Notes: generated by a model not told the origin, from the letters alone. DNA of 32,000 nt from Candidatus Saccharimonadota bacterium (GCA_016700135.1 CP065004.1:390001-422000); one strand, 5' to 3'. Positions 978 through 13,888 are shown, counted from the stretch's first letter. Numbers and translations: made by a program.

Positions 978-1805
978 TTAGGCAAATCCGTCCTGTTGCC
1001 AAATGTATTGGGCAGCACACCACTTTTGGAGATTTTTCTGATCCTCTCCTACATCATAGTTGTCAAAAACAGATTGCCGGATTTTAATAAAGGCCTCCGT
1101 TATAAGATCTGCATTTTCACTCAGGAAAAAAAACACGGCAGGATACCGCTCTGCCGCCTGCAGAAGTGACGGAATTTGATTCTGTAAAACATTGCTGGCT
1201 GCCCACTGAAGACCGTCTCTAAAATCAGGATTATCAATTTGCTGACTGAGATCGAATGCATTCAGACCGGTGCGAAGATACCCAATCTGTTCAATCACCC
1301 GGAACATCTGCCCCAATCTCGTATCACGGTTTTCTACGACCTCACAAATAACCCGTTCAACACGTTCCGGCAGCTCATCCCCTCCGTTTCCGAACATTTC
1401 ATGAATGATACCCCGTATTGCTGATGATTCATCGTTCTCGACTTCAACCGTCTTGAGATCGAACATCACATCCCCCACAACTGCCTCTCCCCAATCATGA
1501 GAGACTGCTGCAAGAAGAAGATCTTCCTGATCAGGGCGTGAAAGGACGTCTTCACCGTACATATTCTGATACCGAATAAACTGTCGGGCCAGACCGTACG
1601 TTAGCCGCATATGCTCTAGGTTATTTACATCTGCACCGAGTGCATTCCGCCATTCTTCTTCAGAAATACTTGTCGGTCGATACCGTCCGTATCTGACACG
1701 GGGTGCCAATGTCTTTCCGTAGGAAGTTTCTGCAAATAGCCGATGAAGATCGGTAAATTGATATGTCTGATCACTTGTTGCAAATGTTATAGGTATCTCT
1801 GACAT
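978..1805 (-). CDS. HD-domain phosphohydrolase-like protein
   Basis: 275-aa ORF with the HD signature AAVSHDWGEAVVGDV, resembling HD-superfamily nucleotidases/phosphohydrolases. Confidence 0.5.
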   Translation of the reverse strand: MSEIPITFATSDQTYQFTDLHRLFAETSYGKTLAPRVRYGRYRPTSISEEEWRNALGADVNNLEHMRLTYGLARQFIRYQNMYGEDVLSRPDQEDLLLAAVSHDWGEAVVGDVMFDLKTVEVENDESSAIRGIIHEMFGNGGDELPERVERVICEVVENRDTRLGQMFRVIEQIGYLRTGLNAFDLSQQIDNPDFRDGLQWAASNVLQNQIPSLLQAAERYPAVFFFLSENADLITEAFIKIRQSVFDNYDVGEDQKNLQKWCAAQYIWQQDGFA

Positions 1806-1848
1806 GAAGGTATTATAGCAGTTTTACGCTCAAATTAGCTATACCCAT

Positions 1849-1874
1849 AAAAAAACCCTCTCATGAGGGTTTTT
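1849..1874 (-). terminator. Intrinsic terminator hairpin, interpreted as the original ssrA terminator stranded by island insertion
   Basis: A7-CCCTC-TCAT-GAGGG-T5. Read on the minus strand it follows TCCACCA (1883..1877) directly and ends in a T7 run. No minus-strand gene currently reads into it. Confidence 0.6.
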
Positions 1875-1878
1875 GTTG

Positions 1879-1883
1879 GTGGA
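1879..1883. other. attL crossover core GTGGA (island left junction)
   Basis: This 5-bp GTGGA is the only identity shared with the right junction at 12982..12986. Host side: ...GGGTTTTTGTTG. Island side: CACCGTCTCC... Confidence 0.55.
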
Positions 1884-2033
1884 CACCGTCTCCGAGAGTT
1901 GGAACGATGTGTATGATTATGTGAATGAGTGGGGAAATAGGATACAAGCATTTACATAGGAGACTATCACCACAAGAAAGAAGAGCCTTCTATACTCACA
2001 TTAAGATATATAAATCTATTTATCTTTAGGGTA

Positions 2034-2039
2034 TATAAT
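2034..2039 (+). promoter_or_regulatory. Possible -10 box (TATAAT) for the SIR2-like gene, implying a leaderless or near-leaderless mRNA
   Basis: A perfect TATAAT ends 8 nt before the ATG at 2048, with no Shine-Dalgarno in between. I found no convincing -35. Confidence 0.25.
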
Positions 2040-2047
2040 AGTGCCAT

Positions 2048-3079
2048 ATGAGAGTATTAGTTGTCATAGGAGCAGGAGCATCATATGATGCATGGCCAAA
2101 ACATGTATACAATTATAATGGTCAGCGTTTACCTTTAGCAAACGAGTTGTTTGCTCCACTTGCAATTCAGAATCATTATTTACAGCAGTATAATTTAATG
2201 GGATTGGCAGCAAAATTAAGATTATTAGCAGATTCCAAAAAACACGATTTTGATATTGAAAAAGAATTAGCTGAAATTTTCGATACTGCAAAAGAAAGAA
2301 ATGATCCAAACGACCTTCAAAATCTATTTAAAGCTCGATTCTATATACATTCATTAATTCTCGCTCTTACACAAGAAACATTAAAACGCACAAATGGACA
2401 CACAAACTATGTCACTCTTTTATATAAGTTGAAAGACTGGATAAATGAATATCCTTCCGATCGTTTCGTCGATATTGTGGTTTTTAACTATGACTCACTT
2501 ATTGAACATGCTATGACTAATGTTTATGGGTATGATTGGTTCCATAAAACAAGTGATCAGCCACTAACTGCATATTACAGAGGAAATAACCTTAGGATAT
2601 ATAAACCGCATGGTTCTATTAATTGGGGAAACGAAATCCATAAATCTGAAAAGCCCTATATTTATTGGAATCAAGAAGAGGTGTTTCAAAGCTTCATTGA
2701 TATTAAACCACTCTCTTCAATTTGTGTTATTGACCCGGCTAACATTTCAAGACGTATCCAAAAAAGTTATATTCCGGCAATTGCAATTCCTTACAAAAAT
2801 AAACAGCATTTTGATGAATGCCCTAATGAAATGAAAGAAGAAATGATAGAGGCAACATTAAAAGCAAATAAACTGATCACAATTGGATGGAAAGGAAGTG
2901 ATGAGAATTATACCTCAATTCTTAAAAAGAACTCTCACTTGACTGACATCTACGTAGTAAGTCCTAACGCAAATACAAATCTCGATGAAATATTCCCAAG
3001 TATCATCAGACCAATTAAATCATCCTTTAGAGATTTTATAAATAAAACACAACAGCTGGAAGAAATACTTACATCTTGA
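2048..3079 (+). CDS. SIR2-like (SIR2_2 family) NAD-binding protein, stand-alone and short
   Basis: N-terminal VVIGAGASYDAW (Rossmann GAGxS), VVFNYDSLIEHA (TNYDxLxE-like), IYKPHGSINW (catalytic-His motif) and ITIGWKGSDEN. 343 aa with no recognisable sensor domain. Confidence 0.65.
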   Translation: MRVLVVIGAGASYDAWPKHVYNYNGQRLPLANELFAPLAIQNHYLQQYNLMGLAAKLRLLADSKKHDFDIEKELAEIFDTAKERNDPNDLQNLFKARFYIHSLILALTQETLKRTNGHTNYVTLLYKLKDWINEYPSDRFVDIVVFNYDSLIEHAMTNVYGYDWFHKTSDQPLTAYYRGNNLRIYKPHGSINWGNEIHKSEKPYIYWNQEEVFQSFIDIKPLSSICVIDPANISRRIQKSYIPAIAIPYKNKQHFDECPNEMKEEMIEATLKANKLITIGWKGSDENYTSILKKNSHLTDIYVVSPNANTNLDEIFPSIIRPIKSSFRDFINKTQQLEEILTS

Positions 3080-3670
3080 TAAAGATTGCAATATTTGAAA
3101 CCTCATACGGTATCATAATTAAACTTCAATATCTTGCTCAGAAACACTAACTCTGTTATCGATGACTACTTTGAACTGATTTGTTGATAATATCTCATTA
3201 CGTAAAGTGCCTTGTCCGCTTTCATCTATTATTGACAGTAAAAAAGAATATGGTTGCACCTCATTTTGCGAATCTGGATGAAAGCTTGAAAAGTATAATC
3301 TGTTAAGTATCTCAATAATTGGACTATGAAGCTGTTTTGTTTTTATAAAATGCACTACATTGAAATTTCTATGTTTATAGCTATGCCAATCCCCTTTATT
3401 TGGCGAGATATAATCTAATTTTTTTTCACAACTTCATTGTCTTTATTGAATTCTGGGATTATTGATCTTACATTTGAAGTTACTTGTGTAAGATTATATA
3501 CACTGGGGTAGTTTTTATTAACAATAGGATTATATACACTGGTAAAGACAAATTTAAGCGGTTTACCTATTAAAGAAGTAGGTAAAGTAAAAGAAAATCT
3601 GTGAGCTTTATTAGTGTTTGTCAACAGATCTGAATACATAATACGGACTTCATCAGGTGATGAATAAAAT

Positions 3671-3686
3671 AGGCTCTAGACTAGCA
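3671..3686. repeat. IS terminal inverted repeat (left), AGGCTCTAGACTAGCA
   Basis: Exact reverse complement of 4372..4387. Confidence 0.85.
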
Positions 3687-4350
3687 CATTAACAATTTGT
3701 AATAGTTCATTGTAAAGGATCGATGGGGATTTGCTCCATCTCCATTCACACTCTTTCAAGTGTAATGGAAAGTTTTTCTTTACACCATTGAACTTAACGA
3801 GACGTCTTTTACAAAAGGACCAGAATGACTCTATGCCATTGATATGGACCCCTTTTGTATTTGAGAACTCATTTTTCTTGTGATTGATTCTCAAATGTTT
3901 GTCATACCCGACATCAACAAGTCCGTTGTATCCGCTCCACGAATCTGAATATACAGTACTGTTCAAGTCAATCTTTCCCTTCATAACAGCATGTAGCGTT
4001 CTTCTTTTACAGTTTGGAATGATACGAGTAAATACACGTCCTTGACGCTCATATATCCCAAATACTACCTGCTTAAATGACGTCCCACGACCTCTTTTAC
4101 TTGACTTGCCTCTCATCCTTCGAGGTCCAAAGTATGATTCATCAATTTCTATCTCACCACCAACATATCGTTGCATCTGGTGCACTTGGTGATGATATAT
4201 GAGTTGACGAATATTATTGTAATATTTGTTGACTGTATTGCGGTTGAGACCCAAAATACCAGAGGTCTGTGTAGCACTCAGATCGTGTGCAAAACACCAT
4301 AGTATCTTTTTTCTCTTGTATTTTGATATCGGCCTATTGTTACAAACCAT
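3676..4350 (-). CDS. IS1595-family (ISXO2-like DDE) transposase
   Basis: 224 aa. N-terminal HTH (SATQTSGILGLNRNTVNKYYNNI) and DDE-region motifs IEIDESYFG, VYSDSWSGY, HINGIESFWSFCKRRL. Confidence 0.8.
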   Translation of the reverse strand: MVCNNRPISKYKRKKILWCFAHDLSATQTSGILGLNRNTVNKYYNNIRQLIYHHQVHQMQRYVGGEIEIDESYFGPRRMRGKSSKRGRGTSFKQVVFGIYERQGRVFTRIIPNCKRRTLHAVMKGKIDLNSTVYSDSWSGYNGLVDVGYDKHLRINHKKNEFSNTKGVHINGIESFWSFCKRRLVKFNGVKKNFPLHLKECEWRWSKSPSILYNELLQIVNVLV

Positions 4351-4371
4351 ACCTCTAGTTTAGCACTACTC

Positions 4372-4387
4372 TGCTAGTCTAGAGCCT
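4372..4387. repeat. IS terminal inverted repeat (right), TGCTAGTCTAGAGCCT
   Basis: Exact reverse complement of 3671..3686. It supplies 2 nt of the premature TAG (4386..4388) of the truncated protease ORF. Confidence 0.85.
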
Positions 4388-6187
4388 AAAATATTCTCTT
4401 ATAGTCTGGTTGTCCAAAACCATAGGCTTGAGACACCTCTTTTTCTTTTATCTCCACTTGTTCCTTAAGACCTGTGGAGTGAATTAGCATAGCTTTAACT
4501 AAATTAGCTCTATTGCCTTTTAAAACGATATCATCTCCTATATTGGCGTTTTTAATCATATCTACAAGGTAGACGCTCTCTCTTGTGATTAATGGAGCAC
4601 TTGCACTAGTTCCTCTATCTGTAGCTAGACCTTGCATATTGATGCCACCAACACCAACTTTGTTGTTTGAGGCAAGAATAGCATCACGGTCATTAATATC
4701 TTTACCAGGAATATTGAGAACATTTCCTCCATGCGCTACTAGCTCTGGTTTCCTCCATTCAAAGTGCACAGGCCCCTTTCGTGTAAAAGGGGAAGGATAA
4801 CCCTGTTCTGTACATATGCAATCTTTACTTACTTTAAGAGCAATTGATCCAACAGTTATTATATTTAAACCATCCGCCGGAGCTTTTACTTTAGTATCGA
4901 AGCCCTTATTACTAAAAATATCTTCATAATCCTTGTTTATACCTCCAAAAAAGTCATGATTACCAGTACTATTTATAAATATAATATCGTACTTCCGACA
5001 TAAAATATCTAAAAATTCTGTCAATTCAGATATATCTTCATCTTTCTGCCTACTATTAACAGAGAAATTAAACACTGAAATAACTTTCTTATACTTTCTA
5101 AATATTGATTCAATTTCTTTTTTAAATGATTCATAGTCTAGTTCCGGCTCTCCATTCTCATCAAAAAGAAATTGAAAATCCATAAAATAAGCACAAGGCT
5201 GCAGTTGGTTGGTCTTTTCGAATTTTTCAAATATATCGTCACCAAATAAAGCTCTACTTGTGACAAAAGTACCATGATCATAATTCGCCTTCTTTTTGCC
5301 AATATATTTTTCCGTATTACTTTTTTTATAGAAATTTAGCAGATCATGATTTACACCACTATCGAGGATTCCAATAATTTCATTTGTTTCTGGAGGTAAC
5401 AAGCGAACATCATTTAGGTCACCCGAAGGAATACATCTAGATGCTTTAAAAGAAGGATAAATCAAAATCTTTTTTATGAAAGAACAATTTGAGAGTATTT
5501 CTTCAATTTCACTTATCGTTAAGTAAGCAATATAAGAAAGATTATGAAAAAGCATCTCAATATCCCTCTTAACAAGTTTGTTAGGAACGAACTGGGAAAT
5601 TAATCCGAAATAATGCTCGTATTTAGATCGAGGAATATTTGAATATAATTCAACAATGCATTTAATTTCTCCATGGTAATTCTTATGCTTTAGCTCTTCA
5701 ATATCTTTATCTACTCTATCAAGAGTTAGACTGCAATCAGCAATATCTGTTATCGCAAAAACTTCTCTATATATATTTTTTTCTTTTCGCTTAATATTTT
5801 CTCCAAACTTTGCTTTCGTAAATGTAGCTGTAGAAGCATAGTATTCCAAGATTTCAAGATCTTGTTTTTTCCCACTAGCCATTAATTTATTTATCTTGGG
5901 AGCTCCAACTAAATCAATATCTGCCTCTAACCAAACTCTACTTGGAGTAGCTGTTTTTGAACGAGATCTTTCGTCTAGATTTACTTCGATATAATAATTC
6001 TCTTCAAATGGGATTTTTTTTTCTAGTATTTTATTCACTGTCTCCTTTACGTGTGAAACTCTCTTAAAAAACAATTCTTCATCTGAAAATTTTTCCCACA
6101 TACCCTTCCAGAAATCAGCACCTTTTGGTTTGTAGTTTACCCTTTCTGCCCTTTTCGCCGGCACTAGTATATTAATATTCATAGTTA

Positions 6188-7285
6188 TTACAAATTATCT
6201 CTTAATGTAGTATAAGGAATATCCGATATTGATGATATCTCAGATAAAGTCATACCATGTTGCCTAAGTATTTTGCATAGTGAATAGTACTTTTTTTTAG
6301 GTATTTTATTTTGGCTGTTCGCATAGTTCGACATTAATAATATGACTTGAATAGCATCAACAGATCTAATTGTTGACTTGCCAGAAAGAACAACTCTCTT
6401 TTTAATGTCGACGCAAATATCTTTTATTGCGGATCCATTTAAACCCTCTGAAAGCTTACTAATAAGTGATAAATCGATATCGCTTTTAAAACCTTCAAGG
6501 TAGTGTTTAAAAAGCAGTTTTCTAAGTTCTTCTGATGGATTGTCAAATTGAACCTTTATGGTAAAACGCCTCCATATTGCTTTATCTAGAATAGATTCAT
6601 GGTTTGTTGCTCCAATTAATATCGAATTATTAGGAAAATTATCAATATTTTGTAGTAAAACAGTAACAACTCTTTTTAGTTCTCCGAGTTCTCTTTCATC
6701 GTCTCTGTTTTTTGCTATTGTATCGATTTCATCAAGTAAGATAACCACATTTTCTTTCTCTGCTATATGAAATATTTCTCTTATGTTCTTCCCAGTTTTA
6801 CCTAGATATGATGAAATAACTTCATCTAGCCTTACTAAAATTAAGGGCATATTAAGCTTATAAGCAAGTGCATAGGCCAGCATAGTCTTGCCAGTACCTG
6901 GAGGCCCGTATAAAAGTAGCTTGTTAGTGGGATATATGTTGTGCCTAGCTAGCATTTCGTATTTTTCCCATTCAGATAACAACCTACTAATTGTTTCTTG
7001 TGCGAACTTGTTCAGTACTACTGATTCTAAAGGAATATTTGAAATGACTCTTTGATATAAAGGAGATAATTCTGTCTGAAAACTATTAGCAAAACTATTA
7101 GTTTGAGCAATATACTTCTGTTTATTTGGGAGCAGTTTAAGTAATTCCTTTAATCTTTTTACCTTATGATGGTTACCTCGTTTTTTACTTTCTACAATCT
7201 CTTTATCCAGAACATCAATTAATGGTATATTGTTCCCTTCTATATATGATCTTATTGCTGCTTCTACGATTTTAATATTTGCCAT
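6188..7285 (-). CDS. ietA: IetA-like classic AAA+ ATPase with an HTH-like C-terminal tail
   Basis: Walker A LLLYGPPGTGKTML, Walker B VVILLDEIDTIA, sensor-1 LIGATNH, RRF arginine. The stop lies 5 nt upstream of the S8 peptidase start (operon). The tail MTLSEISSISDIPYTTLRDNL looks like an HTH. Confidence 0.75.
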   Translation of the reverse strand: MANIKIVEAAIRSYIEGNNIPLIDVLDKEIVESKKRGNHHKVKRLKELLKLLPNKQKYIAQTNSFANSFQTELSPLYQRVISNIPLESVVLNKFAQETISRLLSEWEKYEMLARHNIYPTNKLLLYGPPGTGKTMLAYALAYKLNMPLILVRLDEVISSYLGKTGKNIREIFHIAEKENVVILLDEIDTIAKNRDDERELGELKRVVTVLLQNIDNFPNNSILIGATNHESILDKAIWRRFTIKVQFDNPSEELRKLLFKHYLEGFKSDIDLSLISKLSEGLNGSAIKDICVDIKKRVVLSGKSTIRSVDAIQVILLMSNYANSQNKIPKKKYYSLCKILRQHGMTLSEISSISDIPYTTLRDNL

Positions 7286-7453
7286 ATTTTCGTAATTTTA
7301 CAAAATGCTTCTACAATAGGTTGTATTAAGGATATATTGCGATTTTTTATATTCACAAACTATCCGTAAAACTATTGTACACTATTAATTATGAAGGTTT
7401 TGTTATAAATATATATGTAGGAATTAACTCATTACATAAAGATATTATAAATT

Positions 7454-8005
7454 ATGACCAACTTAAAGCACAAAAAGATCCTGCAGAAAATGATGGAAAA
7501 TGGTGGAATTTCAGTATCACAAGCTATGCGAGACGTAGGGTATAGCAAAGCGTATGCAAAGAATCCACAAAAAGTAATGAAGACACGATCTTTCCAAGCA
7601 TTGGTAGAAAAAGCTTTTCCGGTAAATATAATACTACGTCTTCATAAGGAGCTCCTAGAAAAGAAAACTATTCAACATATCGATTTCCCTGATTCTCTGA
7701 ATGATTCTAGAATTAAGTCTATACTTAAAAAATGTAACAGCTATGAGCTATGTGAAATCGTCCAAATTAAGAGCCAGAATATAAAAAGGGCATACTACTT
7801 AGAAAGAGATACAAAGACAGCTATTTGGGCAATTCACACCTATCACAAGCTTAAAGGGAATTACTTTCAGCAAAAGATAGAAAAAACATCACCACTAGCC
7901 GATACATCTCTAGAAGAACTAAGAGCTATGACAGAAGAAATAAATAAAATTGAAACAAGGTATCTTCAATACAGAGCTTCCGTAAAGAGTAGGAAAATAA
8001 ACTAA
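7454..8005 (+). CDS. Phage terminase small subunit-like (Terminase_2-like) HTH protein
   Basis: The N-terminus ISVSQAMRDVGYSKAYAKNPQKVMK resembles the TerS HTH (AGYSxxxA...). The later block TAIWAIHTYHKLKGNYF resembles the conserved ALELLGKHLGxF block. Called by eye only. Confidence 0.45.
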   Translation: MTNLKHKKILQKMMENGGISVSQAMRDVGYSKAYAKNPQKVMKTRSFQALVEKAFPVNIILRLHKELLEKKTIQHIDFPDSLNDSRIKSILKKCNSYELCEIVQIKSQNIKRAYYLERDTKTAIWAIHTYHKLKGNYFQQKIEKTSPLADTSLEELRAMTEEINKIETRYLQYRASVKSRKIN

Positions 8006-8006
8006 T

Positions 8007-8489
8007 TTACCGGAACAAAATAATGATGGCGATTATTAAGACCGTAATAAAAGACAAAGCTATAAATAAACCCTGTAGGATTAAAAAAAGATTTCCAGAG
8101 CTATCCTTTGTCTTTCCTAACTTTTTCTCTTCATCTTGAAGCTCTTTAATATCGTCAACACTTTTTGACCATATTCCCGTTCTTTTGCTCTCGTCTTTGA
8201 GAAGATATACGTAATATTTTATATTGATCACAATCTGAATAACGCCAAAAATTATTGAAAGAAGTAAAAAAAACCATGTAAAGAGTAGAATTATTCTGAT
8301 CTCTGTTGTGATTAAATCTTTTCGTAGGATAGCAAATGAGGCGGTAATCGGAAAAATTATGGTCGCAAAATATAGTAACTGTCTTGTTAGTTCAAGCTCT
8401 TGTTCATTCGCGAGAGTATTCCAATGTAAGGCAGCATTATGATGCACATCTTTATTCCTTTGTCTGATTATTTCATCATCTTTATTCAT
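8007..8489 (-). CDS. Multi-pass membrane protein, unknown function
   Basis: ORF 8007..8507 begins with TTG, so it is trimmed to the ATG at 8489 (MNKDDEII...). It has three to four hydrophobic helices (FATIIFPITASFAIL, IILLFTWFFLLLSIIFGVIQIV, LFLILQGLFIALSFITVLIIAIIILF). Confidence 0.5.
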   Translation of the reverse strand: MNKDDEIIRQRNKDVHHNAALHWNTLANEQELELTRQLLYFATIIFPITASFAILRKDLITTEIRIILLFTWFFLLLSIIFGVIQIVINIKYYVYLLKDESKRTGIWSKSVDDIKELQDEEKKLGKTKDSSGNLFLILQGLFIALSFITVLIIAIIILFR

Positions 8490-8601
8490 CTTCTCTACTT
8501 GAATCAACTTCGTCTGAAGGAGCTTCTACGTTATATCCATTTTCAATGTAATCATTACCTTGTTTATCTATACTGGTTTGATTTGAACTTTCATCTGACA
8601 T
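8482..8601 (-). CDS. Possible 39-aa acidic peptide, translationally coupled to the downstream membrane protein
   Basis: Hand-translated as MSDESSNQTSIDKQGNDYIENGYNVEAPSDEVDSSREDE*. Its stop overlaps the ATG at 8489 (ATGAATAA). Below the ORF-track size cut-off. Confidence 0.25.
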   Translation of the reverse strand: MSDESSNQTSIDKQGNDYIENGYNVEAPSDEVDSSREDE

Positions 8602-8634
8602 AATGCACTATTATATCAATAATTAAAACAGATA

Positions 8635-9048
8635 CTATAATATTGAGCGTATTCCACTAATCATCTGATTTACATGTGTTACTACCTTCTCAGAAAACCT
8701 ATCTAAATCAGATAGATCCTTCTGAACGACTCTCGTGACACCTCTCTCTTTTGCTGCTTCGTTATACTCCTCTACCGTAGAGATAGCAATTACTTTCTCT
8801 GATCCAAATCTTTCAATATCTAATATGTGAAAAGAGCCTTCCAATTTGCAGTCTCTATCCAGAATAATAATGTCAAATTCTGCATTTGGATTATTGTTCA
8901 CAAAATTTGAGACCTGTTCATGATTGGTAAGTATCATAAGAGAGAAAGAGTAGGGCTGGTCATGTTCCAAGACGAAAAGCTTATCCAGAAGCCGAGAGAG
9001 CACTTTCAGATTATCTTCTAGAATAAGTATATTCTTGTTTAGAATCAT
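8635..9048 (-). CDS. Stand-alone receiver (REC/CheY-like) domain protein
   Basis: 137 aa. ILILEDN acidic pocket, FDIIILDRD (phospho-acceptor Asp position), AISTV (conserved S/T), VVQKD (conserved Lys). No output domain. Confidence 0.55.
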   Translation of the reverse strand: MILNKNILILEDNLKVLSRLLDKLFVLEHDQPYSFSLMILTNHEQVSNFVNNNPNAEFDIIILDRDCKLEGSFHILDIERFGSEKVIAISTVEEYNEAAKERGVTRVVQKDLSDLDRFSEKVVTHVNQMISGIRSIL

Positions 9049-9063
9049 AGTTTAGTTATTCTA

Positions 9064-9252
9064 TCATGAGTGATGTTCCAGATCACTTTCAAGCATCTGC
9101 ATTGCAGTTACAATATCACTCTCATAAGCTTTATTTGCAAGGCTCTCTAGTTGATCTTCAAGCGTTTTAATATCCGTAGTTGCCCATTTATACAGGATGG
9201 GGAAATTCTTTTTATCTATTTTATGACCGAATACGAAAATTTCTTCATTCAT
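9064..9252 (-). CDS. Hypothetical small protein
   Basis: 62-aa ORF packed between the operon neighbours (gaps of 7 and 15 nt). No family recognised. Confidence 0.35.
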   Translation of the reverse strand: MNEEIFVFGHKIDKKNFPILYKWATTDIKTLEDQLESLANKAYESDIVTAMQMLESDLEHHS

Positions 9253-9259
9253 AAAGAAA

Positions 9260-9580
9260 TTACATTTCTAAAGCCTTCTTTGTTAATCGCTGTTTTAATT
9301 CCCTGTATTGATCAGGAGAAAGATTGTTTTCCTTTGCAAATTCATCAGCAGTCTTTTCTGCTATCTTCAAAGCCTCCTTTATGTAGATAAACGAATCTAA
9401 CAGGAAAAAGAGTGAGAAAAAAAATAGAAAGAGTATTCCTAATCCAAAAAAGCCTTCTTCCTCTATCGATCTCCAGAGCATATTAAAAAGGATATATCCC
9501 GTAGATCCACATATAACAATAGCTATACCTAGAAGTATTTTTCTCTTCATCCTCATAGAAAGCATTATATCAAAATCCAC
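9260..9580 (-). CDS. Small two-helix membrane protein, unknown function
   Basis: 106-aa ORF with two hydrophobic segments (ILLGIAIVICGSTGYILF, FGLGILFLFFFSLFFLL) and a charged helical tail. The start may be one of the internal Mets. First gene of the operon divergent from XRE. Confidence 0.45.
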   Translation of the reverse strand: MDFDIMLSMRMKRKILLGIAIVICGSTGYILFNMLWRSIEEEGFFGLGILFLFFFSLFFLLDSFIYIKEALKIAEKTADEFAKENNLSPDQYRELKQRLTKKALEM

Positions 9581-9627
9581 AATACTAGTGCATGATATTT
9601 CTATTGTGGTAGGAGTGTAATAGTAGC

Positions 9628-9885
9628 ATGAAGTTTAACCGCTCCATCTCTACAGAAGAAAGACGACAAGAGAAGCAAGAATTTGCCATAGCTTTTGGAC
9701 ATCATCTACGCAAAGTTAGAGAAAGTAAAGGGATCAGTCAAGAAAAACTTTCAATAGAAGCTGGATACTATCATACTTACGTAAATAAAATTGAAGCAGG
9801 GAAATACTCTCCTTCTCTTCATACCGTATGGCGACTTGCACATACTATGAAAATGACTGTTTCTGAGTTATTAAAAGGCTTCTAA
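9628..9885 (+). CDS. XRE-family helix-turn-helix transcriptional regulator
   Basis: LRKVRESKGISQEKLSIEAGYYHTYVNKIEAGKYSPSLHTVWRLAHTM is a canonical HTH_3/XRE fold signature. AGGAG lies 13 nt upstream. Confidence 0.8.
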   Translation: MKFNRSISTEERRQEKQEFAIAFGHHLRKVRESKGISQEKLSIEAGYYHTYVNKIEAGKYSPSLHTVWRLAHTMKMTVSELLKGF

Positions 9886-9895
9886 AGCATCAAGA

Positions 9896-10549
9896 ATGGC
9901 TTCTGATTTTGAACAATTACTACCTGAAGAGAAACTCATTGAAGCAAAAAAATATATTGTTTTTCGAATAAAGGAAGAACAAATCAAGCAAAAAACCAAG
10001 AACCCTAATGTAGCATTCAACCGCACAATTGGATCATCTGATCCCATTGACCCTTTTTGGCAAAATAGAGCCCTAGACGAACTTATTAAAGAAAGATATA
10101 TATCACTCAGTGAGACCCCTTGGCCTGTAGAGATACACTTAAAAGAAGATTCAGCAATAGGTTTTTTATATTATCAAATAACCGTTCTTGAGTCCTTTGA
10201 AACACTTTATAGATCTGTTATAAGGGATACTACATCTGGATCGGATAACATCATTTACGTTGATTTTGAGAAAAGAAAAATTGAATACAGCAATCAAACT
10301 CATACGTATTCCAGGGAGTCAAATGAAGTAAAGATTTTATTCCATTTATTAAAAGCTCCATCTCTTTGCGTTCCTTCAAAAGAACTATGCCAACTTCTGA
10401 ATGAGCCTCGGGCAGACGCAGAAGGAGCTTCAGAAAAAGATCGTTTGAGAGATATCATTAAGTCCATCCGCAATAAATTTGGTAAGGGACTAGTCGAAAC
10501 CTGCTCTGGTGGATATTTGATTTCTCTCCCAATAAAGGTTCAAGACTAA
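9896..10549 (+). CDS. Protein with a C-terminal OmpR/PhoB-type winged-helix (Trans_reg_C-like) domain
   Basis: The C-terminus SNEVKILFHLLKAPSLCVPSKELCQLL...RLRDIIKSIRNKFGKGLVETCSGGYLISL matches the LTxxExxLLxxL...LRxKL...GxGY pattern. The N-terminal 140 aa are unrecognised. Confidence 0.5.
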   Translation: MASDFEQLLPEEKLIEAKKYIVFRIKEEQIKQKTKNPNVAFNRTIGSSDPIDPFWQNRALDELIKERYISLSETPWPVEIHLKEDSAIGFLYYQITVLESFETLYRSVIRDTTSGSDNIIYVDFEKRKIEYSNQTHTYSRESNEVKILFHLLKAPSLCVPSKELCQLLNEPRADAEGASEKDRLRDIIKSIRNKFGKGLVETCSGGYLISLPIKVQD

Positions 10550-10562
10550 CTCTTTTCCCTAG

Positions 10563-10644
10563 TTATCCCTACATTATCCCCGAATACTTGCATAATTGCA
10601 TACTCTGATAGGCTTTCCTCTTCTCTACATTTTATTGTTATCCC
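10563..10644. repeat. Three copies of TTATCCC plus tandem TTGCATA repeats (iteron/operator-like)
   Basis: TTATCCC at 10563, 10574 (11-bp spacing) and 10638. TTGCATA-A-TTGCATA lies at about 10588-10602. All sit in the 102-bp spacer before the wHTH gene. Confidence 0.35.
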
Positions 10645-10651
10645 TGCTCCA

Positions 10652-11230
10652 TTGAATCAAAATCAAATCATAGTGATTGTTAAAAATTCACATAACAACA
10701 TGTATAAAAAATACTCGATCAACTACAAGGGGTATATAAGTCTCTTGAGAATTACTCAGATGTATCTGAAAGATCAAACGCTGACAATGACTGAATTTGC
10801 AGCTTACCTTATTCTTGTAATGAATGCTGATTTTGATAATAGGCATTCAACATATGGGCAAATACTGAGAACAGATAAGGAAATTGCTGTGGGCATTGGA
10901 TCAAACCAATCAACAATTTACAGACATAGAACAAGTCTCATTCGAAAGGGCCTACTGTTTCAAATAGAACGATACACCTATGTTAAATTCCTTGATCTAT
11001 ATACCAGCAGTAACATAGGCAAAATTGCAAAATTTGATTCTTCAAAGCTGAAAAACTATCTTGCAATAATACTAAGAACTAATGCAGTTTCGTATGAAGA
11101 GTTTACAAAACAAAACGCTGGAAAAAGCCATACTGATTCTAAATCTAATAATTCTTCTAATGAAGAATCTTCTATATATCAGCAAGTCTCTACGAATAAA
11201 GAAGATGAACTAGAAGATATCCCTTTTTAA
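10652..11230 (+). CDS. Winged-helix DNA-binding protein (replication-initiator or regulator-like)
   Basis: 192-aa ORF starting with TTG; the first ATG is at 10700. The HTH-like block is EIAVGIGSNQSTIYRHRTSLIRKGLL, and the C-tail is acidic and Ser/Asn-rich. Confidence 0.4.
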   Translation: MNQNQIIVIVKNSHNNMYKKYSINYKGYISLLRITQMYLKDQTLTMTEFAAYLILVMNADFDNRHSTYGQILRTDKEIAVGIGSNQSTIYRHRTSLIRKGLLFQIERYTYVKFLDLYTSSNIGKIAKFDSSKLKNYLAIILRTNAVSYEEFTKQNAGKSHTDSKSNNSSNEESSIYQQVSTNKEDELEDIPF

Positions 11231-11315
11231 TTCATATATGCATAAATAATATAAATTTGACGCAACAAATATTTTTTAAAAAAAATATCCAACATTAGTC
11301 ATATTATAAGATACA

Positions 11316-11507
11316 ATGATTTCAATAAGTGAATGTAGAAAAATATTAGGAAAGCTTTCAGATCAATTAAATGATGATGAGATTGAAACTTTGCGTAATC
11401 AACTATATTCGCTTACCAATCAATTAGTTGATAATCATTTTCAAATAACCCATGGCAGAGACTCTAGCAATCATTTATGCACGCGTTTCGACAGCAAGAC
11501 AAGTTAA
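11316..11507 (+). CDS. Small hypothetical protein upstream of and overlapping the integrase (possible directionality factor)
   Basis: 63-aa ORF with a helical-looking N-terminal 45 aa. The last 56 nt overlap the recombinase gene out of frame. Confidence 0.25.
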   Translation: MISISECRKILGKLSDQLNDDEIETLRNQLYSLTNQLVDNHFQITHGRDSSNHLCTRFDSKTS

Positions 11508-13047
11508 CGAAGGACATGGTTTAGATTCACAAGTAGAGAGATGTCTGCAGTATATAAAAAGCAAAGAATATAAAAAGGAAAGAATATTTAGAGAAGAAGG
11601 CATCTCTGGAGGATTATTTGATAGACCTCAGATGAAGGAACTCCTTCGGTATCTTGATCGGTTTCCTAATAAAGAATTCGTGATTGTTGTTGATGATATT
11701 AAACGAATAGCTAGAGAAACTTCTGTACACTTTCTAATTAAACAAGAGATCTATGGTAGAGGAAGCAGGCTAGAAAGCCCGAATTTCCGATTTGAAGAAA
11801 CACCGGAAGGAAGATACGTCGAGACGATTTTAGCTGCTACTGCTGAACTGGAAAGGAACCAGAATACTCGACAAGTAAATCAAAAGATGCGAGCACGGCT
11901 CGGAAGCGGTTACTACTGTTTTAAATCTCCTCCTTCAGGATACATTTATAAGCGAGACGTGATTCATGGAAAGATTATTCACCCTACACGGCCACTATCC
12001 TCAATCTATAAAGATGCTATTGAGGGATTTGCAAATGGATTGCTAAATACTCAACTTGAAGTCAAAAACTTTATAGAACAAGAATATAAAAGGAAAAATC
12101 ACAAAGATACCGTCACTCTAAATAAAGTCAAACGTATACTAACCACAATTTTCTACACTGGCTATATCGAGTATCCAAAATGGGACATCACACTCATTAA
12201 AGCTCATCATAAAGGAATAATTAGCCTTGAAACGTATAATAAAGTCCAAGAAAAACTTAGTAGAGGTATAAAAGCTCCAATTCGTAAAGACTACAACTAT
12301 GACTTCCCCTTAAGAGGATTTGTCTTGTGCAGTCACTGTAAACAGCCTATGACTGCTAGTTGGCATAAAGGGAGAGTAAAGAAATATGCACATTACTTTT
12401 GCAAGAACCCAAAGTGTTGGGTGAATAGAAATCAACTTCCACGAAACCTTACTAAGAATGTAGACAATAGAAAGATGCATAAACAGTTTGAGATGCTTCT
12501 ACAATTCATAAAACCTAGTCCAGAAGTGATGAGACTGGCAAAAGCAGTACTAGAAGACATCTGGAATAACAGAAGCACATTGGAGGCAAATCAGCAGCGG
12601 AAGAATAGCATTAAACTCATAGAGCTCACTGAACAGAAAGATAATTTAATCAAGCAAATGACAAAGACTACCAGCAATATATTAAAGAAAGAATATGAGT
12701 TTCAAATAGAGAATATTCTTACTGAGATCGAAAATCTTAAACAGCAAGCTATCAAAACATACTCAAGTGAAAACTTTGGAACCGCATGTAATATTGTTCT
12801 TTCTCGAATAGAAAATCCGCTACTGATGTGGCGAAGTGAGAATTATAAAGACAAACGACTACTCCTGGAGATGTTTTTCAAAGATAGAATTGCGTATGAT
12901 CTGGAAGAAGGATTTGGAACCGTTATTTTGGCTTGTCTCCCCAGGCTATTATGTGTTAAACCTGAGGAGCATTACCAGCTTGTGGAGATGCCGGGAGTCG
13001 AACCCGGGTCCGTAAAGGCATTTTTAAAAATGTTTTGCAGGAGATAG
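11452..13047 (+). CDS. Large serine recombinase (integrase)
   Basis: Catalytic motif LAIIYARVSTARQVNEGHGLDSQ, a resolvase-like N-domain, a recombinase domain, a zinc ribbon (CSHCKQPMTASW...HYFCKNPKC) and a coiled-coil region. The last 21 codons are antisense to tmRNA. Confidence 0.85.
   Translation: MAETLAIIYARVSTARQVNEGHGLDSQVERCLQYIKSKEYKKERIFREEGISGGLFDRPQMKELLRYLDRFPNKEFVIVVDDIKRIARETSVHFLIKQEIYGRGSRLESPNFRFEETPEGRYVETILAATAELERNQNTRQVNQKMRARLGSGYYCFKSPPSGYIYKRDVIHGKIIHPTRPLSSIYKDAIEGFANGLLNTQLEVKNFIEQEYKRKNHKDTVTLNKVKRILTTIFYTGYIEYPKWDITLIKAHHKGIISLETYNKVQEKLSRGIKAPIRKDYNYDFPLRGFVLCSHCKQPMTASWHKGRVKKYAHYFCKNPKCWVNRNQLPRNLTKNVDNRKMHKQFEMLLQFIKPSPEVMRLAKAVLEDIWNNRSTLEANQQRKNSIKLIELTEQKDNLIKQMTKTTSNILKKEYEFQIENILTEIENLKQQAIKTYSSENFGTACNIVLSRIENPLLMWRSENYKDKRLLLEMFFKDRIAYDLEEGFGTVILACLPRLLCVKPEEHYQLVEMPGVEPGSVKAFLKMFCRR
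12982..12986. other. attR crossover core GTGGA (island right junction)
   Basis: Island side: ...CATTACCAGCTT. Host side: GATGCCGGGAGTCGAACCC (the tmRNA T-arm, antisense). Confidence 0.55.
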
Positions 13048-13397
13048 CATATTTTTTCCTCAAGCCCGGTGCGGGAGATATGCAAACCACCGTCAGGCTG
13101 CCAATTTTTAACTTTTCGAGCCGCATCAAGATTGGTAACTTTCTGCGGCTGTACCCCGAAGGTTGTACCTCAATGAGCTATCGGAGGTCACTCAAAGAGA
13201 AAACTAAGAGTCTTTGTCGTTAGACAGTGGCAAATGCTCTTTGAGGAGCATTAAGTCCAAGCATGTCCATTGCAAGTGCTCGAAGTTCTGCAGTTGCGTC
13301 TTTGACGTTTGCAGTTATTGTTTTCCATTTGACGCATAGGTGCGCCCCTGCCATTTATAAAAGTGCGTATTCTTCACGTCGAGGCCTTGTCATCCCC
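12983..13397 (-). ncRNA. ssrA: tmRNA (transfer-messenger RNA), CCA not encoded in the present state
   Basis: The minus strand starts 5' GGGGATGACAAGGCCTCGACG and ends GGACCCGGGTTCGACTCCCGGCATCTCCA. The acceptor stem GGGGAUG/CAUCUCC includes the G3-U pair. The T-arm is CCGGG-TTCGACT-CCCGG. It abuts smpB. AATAACT-GCA-AAC resembles the E. coli resume-codon context. Confidence 0.85.
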
Positions 13398-13849
13398 TAC
13401 TTTTTTATATACTCTTTCATTTCCCGTTCCTGTTCTCTTTTTATATCTTCACTTCTTTCAAGTTTCTTCTTTGCTATTTCACCTTTCGCTCGTGCTAAAG
13501 CAATAGAAATCTTGATGTGACGTCCTTTAGTATAACATGCTATAGGTATAATAGTCAACCTGCCACCGGACTGTAGTTTCGTCTGAAGTTTAATAATTTC
13601 CTTCTTGTGAAGGAGGAGTTTACGGCGTCTGGTAGGCTCATAACCCTGAGGCACTGCAAACCGGTAAATCGGTATTTCGGCATTTGTAAGATATACTTCT
13701 CCGTTTTCTGAAATCTTTGCAAAAGCGTTTTCCAGCTTAATATTTCCCTGCTTTATGGATTTCACTTCCGCACCCACAAGAGAGATTCCCGCTTCATAGG
13801 TATCGACTGCTTCATACTCACGATGGAAATTCCTGTTGGTGACTTTCAT
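13397..13849 (-). CDS. smpB: SsrA-binding protein SmpB
   Basis: NRNFHREYEAVDTYEAGISLVGAEVKSIKQGNIKLENAFA is a typical SmpB signature. The start is set to the ATG at 13849, which is preceded by GAGGG; the track start at 13867 is GTG. The last base (G) of the TAG stop is G1 of tmRNA. Confidence 0.9.
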   Translation of the reverse strand: MKVTNRNFHREYEAVDTYEAGISLVGAEVKSIKQGNIKLENAFAKISENGEVYLTNAEIPIYRFAVPQGYEPTRRRKLLLHKKEIIKLQTKLQSGGRLTIIPIACYTKGRHIKISIALARAKGEIAKKKLERSEDIKREQEREMKEYIKK

Positions 13850-13888
13850 ATCCCTCGATTGTACCACGTTTGAGGGATAGAGACAGCC

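Follow-up and report, generated by a model that had tools for sequence, protein, structure and literature searches.

A mobile element probably inserted at the 3′ end of ssrA by its own large serine recombinase, with the attachment site inside the recombinase gene

In the 32,000-nucleotide (nt) stretch of CP065004.1 analyzed here (GCA_016700135.1, positions 390001-422000; hereafter the window), the gene for transfer-messenger RNA (tmRNA), ssrA, adjoins an island of about 11.1 kb that carries a large serine recombinase (LSR) gene, int. The host is a Patescibacteria bacterium of the candidate phyla radiation (CPR), close to Roizmanbacteria. We propose, with a probability of roughly 0.9, that the island is an integrated small circular mobile element, inserted at the 3′ end of ssrA by its own LSR through an attachment site, attP, inside int. 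The mature tmRNA sequence was kept through the discriminator and the following C, and the remaining CA of the CCA end was moved, together with the terminator, 11.1 kb away. Since joining the two island ends restores a conserved protein tail, attP is placed inside the int gene. Coordinates are collected in Table 1, and related loci and contigs are denoted by handles beginning with L.

Boundaries of the island and the empty site

ARAGORN found one tmRNA in the window, at 12982..13397 (-), and the Rfam model RF00023 matched ssrA end to end over model positions 1-374 with 98.3 bits (gathering score 47), its terminal ACCA columns pairing with ACAA of the window gene. The minus-strand DNA across the 3′ end reads ...GGCATCTCCA-CAAGCTGG, or, in a second rendering, ...GGTTCGACTCCCGGCATCTCCA-CAAGCTGGTAATG. 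The acceptor stem and the discriminator are intact, the next DNA bases are CAAG, and CCA is not encoded. In a terminator scan, no minus-strand terminator-like site was found 3′ of ssrA before a weak one at 11902-11890. On the far side of the island, the minus strand from 1883 to 1849 reads TCCACCA-ACAAAAACCCTCATGAGAGGGTTTTTTT, where the RNA would form the hairpin AAAAACCCUC-AUGA-GAGGGUUUUUUU. This far-side RNA folded as a hairpin followed by a U tract (free energy, dG, -15.8 kcal/mol; z = -2.9), and none of 200 shuffles folded equally well. The simple pattern-based scan did not call this hairpin, probably because part of the T run is taken up by A:U pairs that extend the stem.

The two junctions are identical over exactly 5 bp, GTGGA, with mismatches on both sides, and the bases flanking the two cores segregate as expected for recombination between attP and a chromosomal site, attB. 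Judged from the sequence, the crossover would have to fall inside GTGGA, at the discriminator/C74 position. The reconstructed attB contains ...GGCATCTCCACCAACAAAAACCC... and has the junction sequence GGCATCTCCACCAACAAAAACCCTCATGAGAGGG, and the reconstructed attP contains ...CATTACCAGCTTGTGGACACCGTCTCCGAG... and has the junction sequence GAGCATTACCAGCTTGTGGACACCGTCTCCGAGAGTTGGAAC. Taken alone, a 5-bp match is trivial. The boundaries are nevertheless non-random because the steps in GC content, the terminator homology in a relative, the flanking synteny and a protein-profile hit at 1879 all converge on them. Windowed GC is 0.45-0.46 outside and 0.30-0.37 from about 2000 to 12500 (about 0.32 for the island), and the steps from about 0.45 to about 0.32 and back coincide with both junctions.

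The relative L002 (Ca. Roizmanbacteria UBA1450), whose smpB is 84% identical to that of the window, presents an empty site. Its ssrA ends ...GGCATCTCCACACTCTAAAAACCCTCGACACGAGGGTTTTTTTATG and is followed directly by a homologous terminator, and this region aligns with the attB rebuilt from the outer flanks of the window. The DNA similarity between the window and L002 breaks off exactly at 12981, and the flanking synteny carries on across the island: in L002, a homologue with 50% identity to the methyltransferase-like gene at 209-1018 is located 2.3 kb downstream of ssrA, in the same orientation. The window therefore has the layout of an island in a tRNA or tmRNA gene (tDNA), with an intact ssrA at one end, a displaced fragment consisting only of TCCAC(CA) and the terminator at the other, and int adjoining ssrA. 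Regeneration of the complete gene by element DNA was not found, as CAA follows the discriminator and the terminator is lost.

An earlier note, made from the sequence alone, had anticipated much of this anatomy. The tmRNA that it ran from 13397 down to 12983 on the minus strand, with a sound acceptor stem, agrees with the ends placed by ARAGORN and Rfam, and its reading of CAAG instead of CCA with no terminator next to it is plain in the sequence. The CCA end with an intrinsic terminator that it saw 11 kb away is supported by the sequence, the RNA folding and the terminator homology in L002. The windowed GC comparison that it suggested delimits a low-GC segment bounded by the proposed junctions, and the empty site that it expected in a related genome is the one in L002. 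Its island of about 11.1 kb, with a crossover in GTGGA and a displaced CA and terminator, is upheld by that empty site, by the recurrence of the int and ssrA junction in the independent assemblies L001 and L081, and by the family-wide junction signatures described below. The statement that the junctions share only GTGGA is right for exact identity, but the far-side element arm GTTCCAACTCTCGGAGACGGTGTCCAC is also a gapped imitation of the ssrA arm GTTCGACTCCCGG----CATCTCCAC (MAFFT, 4-nt gap), the resemblance to the ssrA 3′ end extending over about 27 nt.

The recombinase and its exchanged C-terminus

The int product contains an N-terminal resolvase domain (PF00239, E 1.4e-23), a recombinase domain (PF07508, E 1.2e-8) and a zinc ribbon (PF13408) that scores 24.3 bits, slightly below the cut-off of 25.3. 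In an alignment of 27 sequences, R11, S13 (the catalytic serine), Q17, R85 and R88 were invariant, as were C293, C296, C317 and C322. The AlphaFold2 (AF2) model has the layout of an LSR, with a coiled coil formed by the long antiparallel helices 357-405 and 409-431, and the sequence match to a solved structure covers the N-terminal domain only (TP901-1 integrase, E 2e-9). Considering the catalytic serine, the recombinase domain, the four cysteines, the predicted coiled coil and the short attachment (att) sites, int is by its predicted features an LSR. The serine recombinase that the earlier note placed beside ssrA is confirmed by the Pfam domains, the catalytic serine, the four cysteines and the AF2 model. 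Its argument that a short core suits a serine rather than a tyrosine recombinase gains from the LSR open reading frame (ORF) spanning the junction, with no tyrosine recombinase among the island ORFs. That first reading overlooked that the int ORF crosses the junction, and hence that attP lies inside int.

The genes int and ssrA run towards each other, and their 3′ ends overlap by 66 nt. Codons 1-510 of int are element DNA. At codon 511, whose GTG opens the GTGGA core, the reading frame enters ssrA in antisense, and the last 21 residues (VEMPGVEPGS...; codons 511-531, VEMPGVEPGSVKAFLKMFCRR) translate the complement of the T-arm and acceptor strand of the tmRNA. When the island ends were joined in silico, they gave a 536-residue (aa) ORF ending LVDTVSESWNDVYDYVNEWGNRIQAFT*. 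We built a profile of this native tail from 12 homologues, with the window left out, and searched it against the six-frame translation of the 32-kb window. The single hit lay at nt 1879 (+), with a score of 18.9 (E 1e-7), and the best of 100 shuffles scored 5.3. The proposed boundaries thus coincide exactly with those that rebuild a conserved protein end. Residues 502-531 of the integrated form had a predicted local distance difference test score (pLDDT) below 50 throughout in the AF2 model. In the AlphaFold model of P0002, a homologue with a native tail, a low-confidence linker at 496-505, which includes the V-D of the core, is followed by a helix at 506-527 (pLDDT about 84). As modeled, integration would probably swap a helix for a Pro/Gly-rich peptide encoded by the host.

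A family of integrases at tmRNA and tRNA genes

The family was taken as the 120 best database homologues of int (38-77% identity), nearly all from CPR-type metagenomes. Their tails were tmRNA-antisense in 98 cases, tRNA-antisense in 7, native in 12 and unclear in 3, with the consensus VE[MVTL]xGxEPxS for the tmRNA-antisense tail and VD....SWNQI..YI..W for the native one. An opposite-strand tmRNA or tRNA gene overlaps the int 3′ end in 27 fetched metagenome loci; it is a tmRNA in 13, and the tRNA targets are Ala, Arg, Met, Phe, Val, Leu and Glu. Most of the other contigs stop a few dozen bases from the junction, and the ORF tails there still resemble antisense tmRNA or tRNA. Such breaks would be expected if occupied and empty sites co-occurred in a sample, since this would split the assembly graph. 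Contigs ending about 30-100 bp past the junction are L084, L092, L093, L096, L100, L103, L107, L112, L120 and L122.

In 13 other loci, an orphan fragment of the native tail is found on the int strand, 4-10 kb upstream of the gene, and begins with GTGGAC wherever the flank was read. On its host side, TCCAC followed by a terminator hairpin was found in RNA sense in L084, L088/L090, L141 and the window. Considering that this combination recurs at several loci, the stranded-terminator anatomy is a family trait. In L087, two orphan tails starting with GTGGAC (1839 and 2501) lie 660 bp apart, with one integrase at ssrA; the double tail has the look of a scar left by an earlier element and recalls the tandem ssrA islands known from Dehalococcoides.

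The homologues with native tails lie on contigs with terminal direct overlaps and no tmRNA or tRNA gene, which indicates circular forms. One of these, L162 (12,376 bp, 55-bp overlap), carries Prim-Pol/helicase, ParB and kinase genes, and another, L164 (7,539 bp, 26-bp overlap), encodes trypsin-like and TIR proteins and a LexA-like repressor. In L162 the Ser/Thr kinase and the Prim-Pol/AAA_25 primase-helicase are at 1063-3123 and 6410-8287, in L164 the trypsin-like protease adjoins the TIR protein (2924-4672) on a contig that also carries the LexA-like repressor, and in L163 a second large serine recombinase follows ParB.

Among distant relatives at 31-36% identity are 13-68-kb viral contigs of IMG/VR, some of them at tRNA-Ala or tRNA-Ser. 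Distant relatives at 25-38% identity overlap convergently with the 3′ ends of tRNA-Ala, Arg, Met, Phe, Val, Leu, Glu and Ser genes, with CCA retained (L089, L091, L094, L098, L109, L111, L113, L119, L122, L124, L128, L129, L133, L136, L138; L165, L168, L177), and some sit on 40-50-kb viral contigs. The window int belongs to a large, apparently undescribed clade, mostly from CPR bacteria and with hundreds of members, that is aimed at the ends of tmRNA and tRNA genes. No description of a CPR-wide clade, of the conserved native tail or of the T-loop motif shift described below was found in the searchable literature, which did not cover TIGER 2020.

Recognition of the attachment sites and proposed mechanism

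From 33 junctions between int and a tmRNA or tRNA gene, the host-arm consensus is GTGGAG aTg..gGGA.T.GAAC, with T.GAAC, which is the conserved T-loop read in antisense, at positions 17-22, and from 12 attP arms the element-arm consensus is GTGGAC At...........tTGGAAC, with TGGAAC at positions 22-27. According to the published rule for serine integrases, the outer motif of the zinc-ribbon domain (ZD) lies 5 bp nearer the center in attB than in attP (PMC3783163), and the 5-bp outward shift from attB to attP in this family agrees with that rule. We infer that the ZD contacts the T(N)GAAC motif. With one arm anchored on the T-loop, the movement of the family among tmRNA and many tRNA genes would be explained.

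In the proposed mechanism, a circular element, integrative-mobilisable or plasmid-like, would carry the defence cargo and the LSR. The LSR would recombine attP, about 25 codons before the int end, with an attB made up of the T-arm, the 3′ acceptor strand, the discriminator and C74 at the ssrA 3′ end, the crossover taking place within GTGGA. Recognition would follow the canonical serine-integrase scheme, with T(N)GAAC as the outer motif. Integration would leave the native tail, a predicted helix, as an orphan coding fragment at the far island end, and int would gain 21 host-encoded residues. The tmRNA would presumably arise from a precursor with a long 3′ trailer, cut by an endonuclease before CCA is added.

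A more speculative extension, which we consider rather doubtful, is that the clade is specialized on the 3′ ends of tRNA-like genes through the T-loop and that the position of attP in int serves as a built-in sensor of the integration state. The circle would then make a helix-tailed, integration-competent integrase and the integrated copy one with a disordered, host-encoded tail. The integrated int would be transcribed head-on against ssrA, and its product could differ in activity or directionality without, or besides, a separate recombination directionality factor (RDF).

Mobility of the element and alternative explanations

Several observations weigh against the proposal of a mobile element integrated by its own LSR. 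No convincing symmetric outer motif was seen by eye in the left, non-tRNA arm of attB, no RDF was recognized among the island ORFs in PHROGs or Pfam, and the crossover is placed only to GTGGA and not to a dinucleotide. The circular junction of the window element, a check that the earlier note had suggested, had no match in viral contigs. Neither read-level nor contig evidence was obtained for an empty site or circle of this element, the exact empty-site string not having been searched in the metagenome or genome scans, and smpB (with either of two starts), the integrase and the HD-domain protein of the flank had no exact match in an assembly index. Moreover, the element may be long resident and perhaps no longer mobile, as the int module (9563-13397) is 74% identical in nt between the window and L081, about as diverged as the host flank at 73%.

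This equal divergence also suits the explanation that the element is an immobilized remnant, integrated long ago by the same mechanism but no longer excising, for example because the host-tailed integrase is inactive or a directionality factor is missing, and persisting as a fixed defence island with turnover of its cargo. The window and L081 indeed share the int module but carry different cargo; the failure to recognize an RDF and the disorder predicted for the integrated-state tail point the same way. On the other side, no damage is seen in the integrase ORF, its catalytic residues or the orphan tail of 26 codons, and relatives occur as circles. Furthermore, L002 is nearer to the window than L081 in its host flank (79% vs 73% nt identity) and yet has a clean empty site, which requires precise excision or independent gain. 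We regard immobilization as possible but the less probable state of the element.

That the island is instead a classical tyrosine-integrase tDNA island, with an attP carrying a long copy of the ssrA 3′ end that restores the gene, is highly improbable. This is the usual mechanism at ssrA (PMC4383910), and the gapped far-side resemblance to the ssrA 3′ end would suit it, but the island ORFs include no tyrosine recombinase, exact junction identity is just 5 bp and CCA was not restored, and a serine recombinase ORF spans the junction, systematically so in the family. An assembly or binning chimera, or insertion by the transposase of the nested IS1595-family insertion sequence (IS), is just as improbable: although the source is evidently a metagenome-assembled CPR genome and the island contains an IS, this IS is bounded by 30-nt inverted repeats of its own, at a distance from the island ends, the ends rebuild a conserved ORF tail, and the junction of int with ssrA recurs in the independent assemblies L001 and L081 and in dozens of other loci, so the arrangement is not an assembly artefact. 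Integration of a mobile element by its own LSR accordingly remains the explanation that we favor.

Consequences for ssrA

The last G of the smpB stop codon TAG (13399-13397) is tmRNA position +1. The two genes therefore adjoin directly and are presumably transcribed together, the tmRNA 5′ end being processed at the stop codon. The tmRNA tag peptide, ANVKDATAELRALAMDMLGLNAPQRAFATV, is encoded at 13209-13301 (-). With 30 aa it is unusually long, and it ends in ATV instead of the usual LAA; tags of the other CPR relatives looked at, L003 and L004 among them, have 19-32 aa. L001 encodes the very same tag, and that of L081 departs from it in a single residue, despite about 25% DNA difference between the window and L081. 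Considering that the tag and the tmRNA are conserved in diverged island-bearing lineages, the tmRNA is evidently still under selection.

Related CPR ssrA genes may natively lack CCA, with CAC in L002 and CAT in L005, and that of L004 encodes it. After integration, CCA is kept in some relatives, where the element supplies CA (L082, L085, L087, L097 and the tRNA cases); the window is among the integrated relatives without it. Since related CPR ssrA genes are natively CCA-less and the tmRNA is conserved, loss of the encoded CCA is probably harmless. CCA-less tRNAs are processed by endonucleolytic 3′ trimming followed by CCA addition, and by analogy such a route is plausible for this tmRNA. Read-through from ssrA into int, in antisense, is likewise plausible.

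Gene content of the island

The genes ietA and ietS are adjacent and co-oriented (4386-7285), as in the IetAS anti-phage system. The IS1595 element has terminal inverted repeats of 30 nt at 3662-3691 and 4367-4396, and its right repeat overlaps the ietS stop. The window and L081 share a module of the HTH regulator, the 217-aa protein, the replication-initiator-like protein, the 63-aa ORF and int. At the same ssrA site, the L081 element carries a tubulin/FtsZ-family gene (114-1139) instead of the IetAS and SIR2 cargo. By its position only, the 63-aa ORF is a candidate accessory or directionality factor; it is one of six small or medium island ORFs that had no match in PHROGs or Pfam. No capsid or conjugation genes were recognized in the island, and the element therefore looks small integrative-mobilisable or plasmid-like.

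Table 1. Features of the ssrA region and of the island in the window
Feature	Position	Strand	Basis and remarks
Displaced end of the ssrA transcription unit	1849..1878	-	CA of CCA (1878-1877), spacer, intrinsic-terminator hairpin
attL core GTGGA	1879..1883	+	Sequence comparison of both junctions
Stranded native int C-terminal tail (VDTVSESWNDVYDYVNEWGNRIQAFT*)	1879..1959	+	Back in frame with int only in the excised circle
Integrated element	1884..12981	n/a	11,098 bp between cores; GC, core comparison; not in L002
TGGAAC, outer attP-arm motif	1900..1905	+	Positions 22-27, 5 bp further out; encodes W-N of the native tail
SIR2-like protein, probably defence cargo	2048..3079	+	Pfam SIR2_2; PADLOC SIR2, E 3.5e-8
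Nested IS1595-family IS (about 735 bp)	3662..4396	-	Transposase 3676-4350; Pfam DDE_Tnp_IS1595, E 1.7e-27
IetS (S8 subtilase) of IetAS	4386..6182	-	PADLOC IetS, E 4e-49; Pfam Peptidase_S8
IetA (AAA ATPase) of IetAS	6188..7285	-	PADLOC IetA, E 1e-94; Pfam AAA
HTH_3 (Cro/CI-type) regulator	9628..9885	+	Pfam, E 3.6e-11; PHROGs
217-aa conserved element protein, no assigned function	9896..10549	+	ORF; common to L081
192-aa winged-helix-like protein	10652..11230	+	Weak phage replication-initiator match, PHROG 270, E 1e-4
63-aa ORF overlapping int start	11316..11507	+	Position kept in L081; no family match
Large serine recombinase (int)	11452..13047	+	531 aa in integrated state; Pfam Resolvase, Recombinase, Zn_ribbon_recom
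attR core GTGGA	12982..12986	+	Codon V511 and start of E512 of int; antisense of tmRNA ...UCCAC
ssrA (tmRNA)	12983..13397	-	Complete through discriminator A12983; ARAGORN, Rfam RF00023, sequence
TCGAAC, outer attB-arm motif	12998..13003	+	Antisense of tmRNA T-loop; positions 17-22 from core
smpB	13397..13867	-	ORF; homologues in L001 and L002 at 84-89% identity, ssrA next in each

Significance

The picture at the level of the family, with attP inside int, the tail swap, a T-loop-anchored attB and hundreds of CPR members, is the more interesting result. It contradicts the assumption of island finders that only tyrosine integrases act at tRNA and tmRNA genes (PMC4383910), and it brings to light hundreds of such serine integrases in CPR bacteria, whose genomes are small and whose mobile elements are poorly known. 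Two signatures, the VEMPGxEPxS tail and the orphan GTGGAC fragment encoding ...SWNQI..Y, allow elements to be mapped at base level in fragmentary metagenomes. As the attB arm is the near-universal T-arm, the family could offer natural landing sites in almost any genome, and the swap of the int C-terminus on integration suggests a way, open to testing, in which the directionality of serine integrases could be controlled. In the CPR bacteria concerned, an ssrA deprived of its encoded CCA and terminator is tolerated on an evolutionary time scale.

Comparison with known systems

The ssrA-specific islands of Dehalococcoides use a serine recombinase of about 540 aa, DsiB (McMurdie et al. 2011, PMC3146451). 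The earlier note had called ssrA islands classically tyrosine-integrase elements, which is correct for the usual mechanism (PMC4383910) but disregards this serine precedent (PMC3146451), and because of it the window island itself is not unprecedented. Both are small integrative mobilisable islands at a single-copy ssrA, with an LSR adjoining ssrA. The DsiB ORF always crosses attL into ssrA, with its stop codon outside the island, and McMurdie et al. suggested that the dsiB gene may be complete only on the circular form (PMC3146451); the 531-aa serine recombinase ORF of the window, with its 66-nt overlap into ssrA, shares this trait. DsiB and the window int are likened by published description and not by sequence, and the hosts belong to different phyla, Chloroflexota and Patescibacteria, respectively. 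In Dehalococcoides, a 20-bp direct repeat has been described, insertion was inferred in the T-loop (positions 333/334) and ssrA is fully restored (PMC3146451), whereas the junctions of the window have only 5 bp in common, with a crossover at the discriminator/C74 position and a displaced CCA and terminator. Besides DsiB, the Dehalococcoides module has DsiA, another serine recombinase of small size, along with ParB, Mom and a tRNA-like locus. Among the ORFs of the window island, neither another resolvase nor ParB or Mom was recognized, and ARAGORN detected no tRNA-like gene in the island.

The phage LSRs (A118/LI, Bxb1 and phiC31; Rutherford et al. 2013, PMC3783163) resemble the window int in having an N-terminal domain, a recombinase domain and a zinc ribbon with a coiled coil. 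Their short att sites, with minimal identity at the crossover and a motif shifted 5 bp inward in attB, are also like those of the window (PMC3783163). Unlike the window element, they target protein-coding or intergenic sequences, and their attP is outside the int ORF, so that the same protein is made in both states.

Tyrosine-integrase islands at ssrA and tRNA genes (Williams 2002/2003; Islander, PMC4383910) share with the window the class of target, an integrase gene by the tDNA, a displaced 3′ fragment and, often, defence cargo. They differ in their unrelated recombinase and in an attP whose long identical tDNA segment regenerates the whole gene; according to the Islander paper, no serine recombinase was known to act at tRNA or tmRNA genes (PMC4383910). 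The tycheposons of Prochlorococcus (bioRxiv 10.1101/2020.12.28.424599) are likewise small integrative cargo elements by tRNA and tmRNA genes, and 27 of 937 are given there with a large serine recombinase. They differ from the window element in being mostly tyrosine-recombinase elements.

In mycobacteriophages with integration-dependent immunity, the subject of work by Broussard and colleagues in 2013, a tyrosine recombinase reportedly acts on an attP within the coding sequence of the element, and integration truncates the repressor. The archaeal integrases of the SSV1 type (PMC8371274) are also like the window int in that attP is inside int and the product differs between the integrated and excised states; they are tyrosine recombinases, however, and integration of SSV1 splits int in two. 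In the window, by contrast with both, it is a serine integrase that is altered, and a host-encoded peptide takes the place of just its last ~25 residues.

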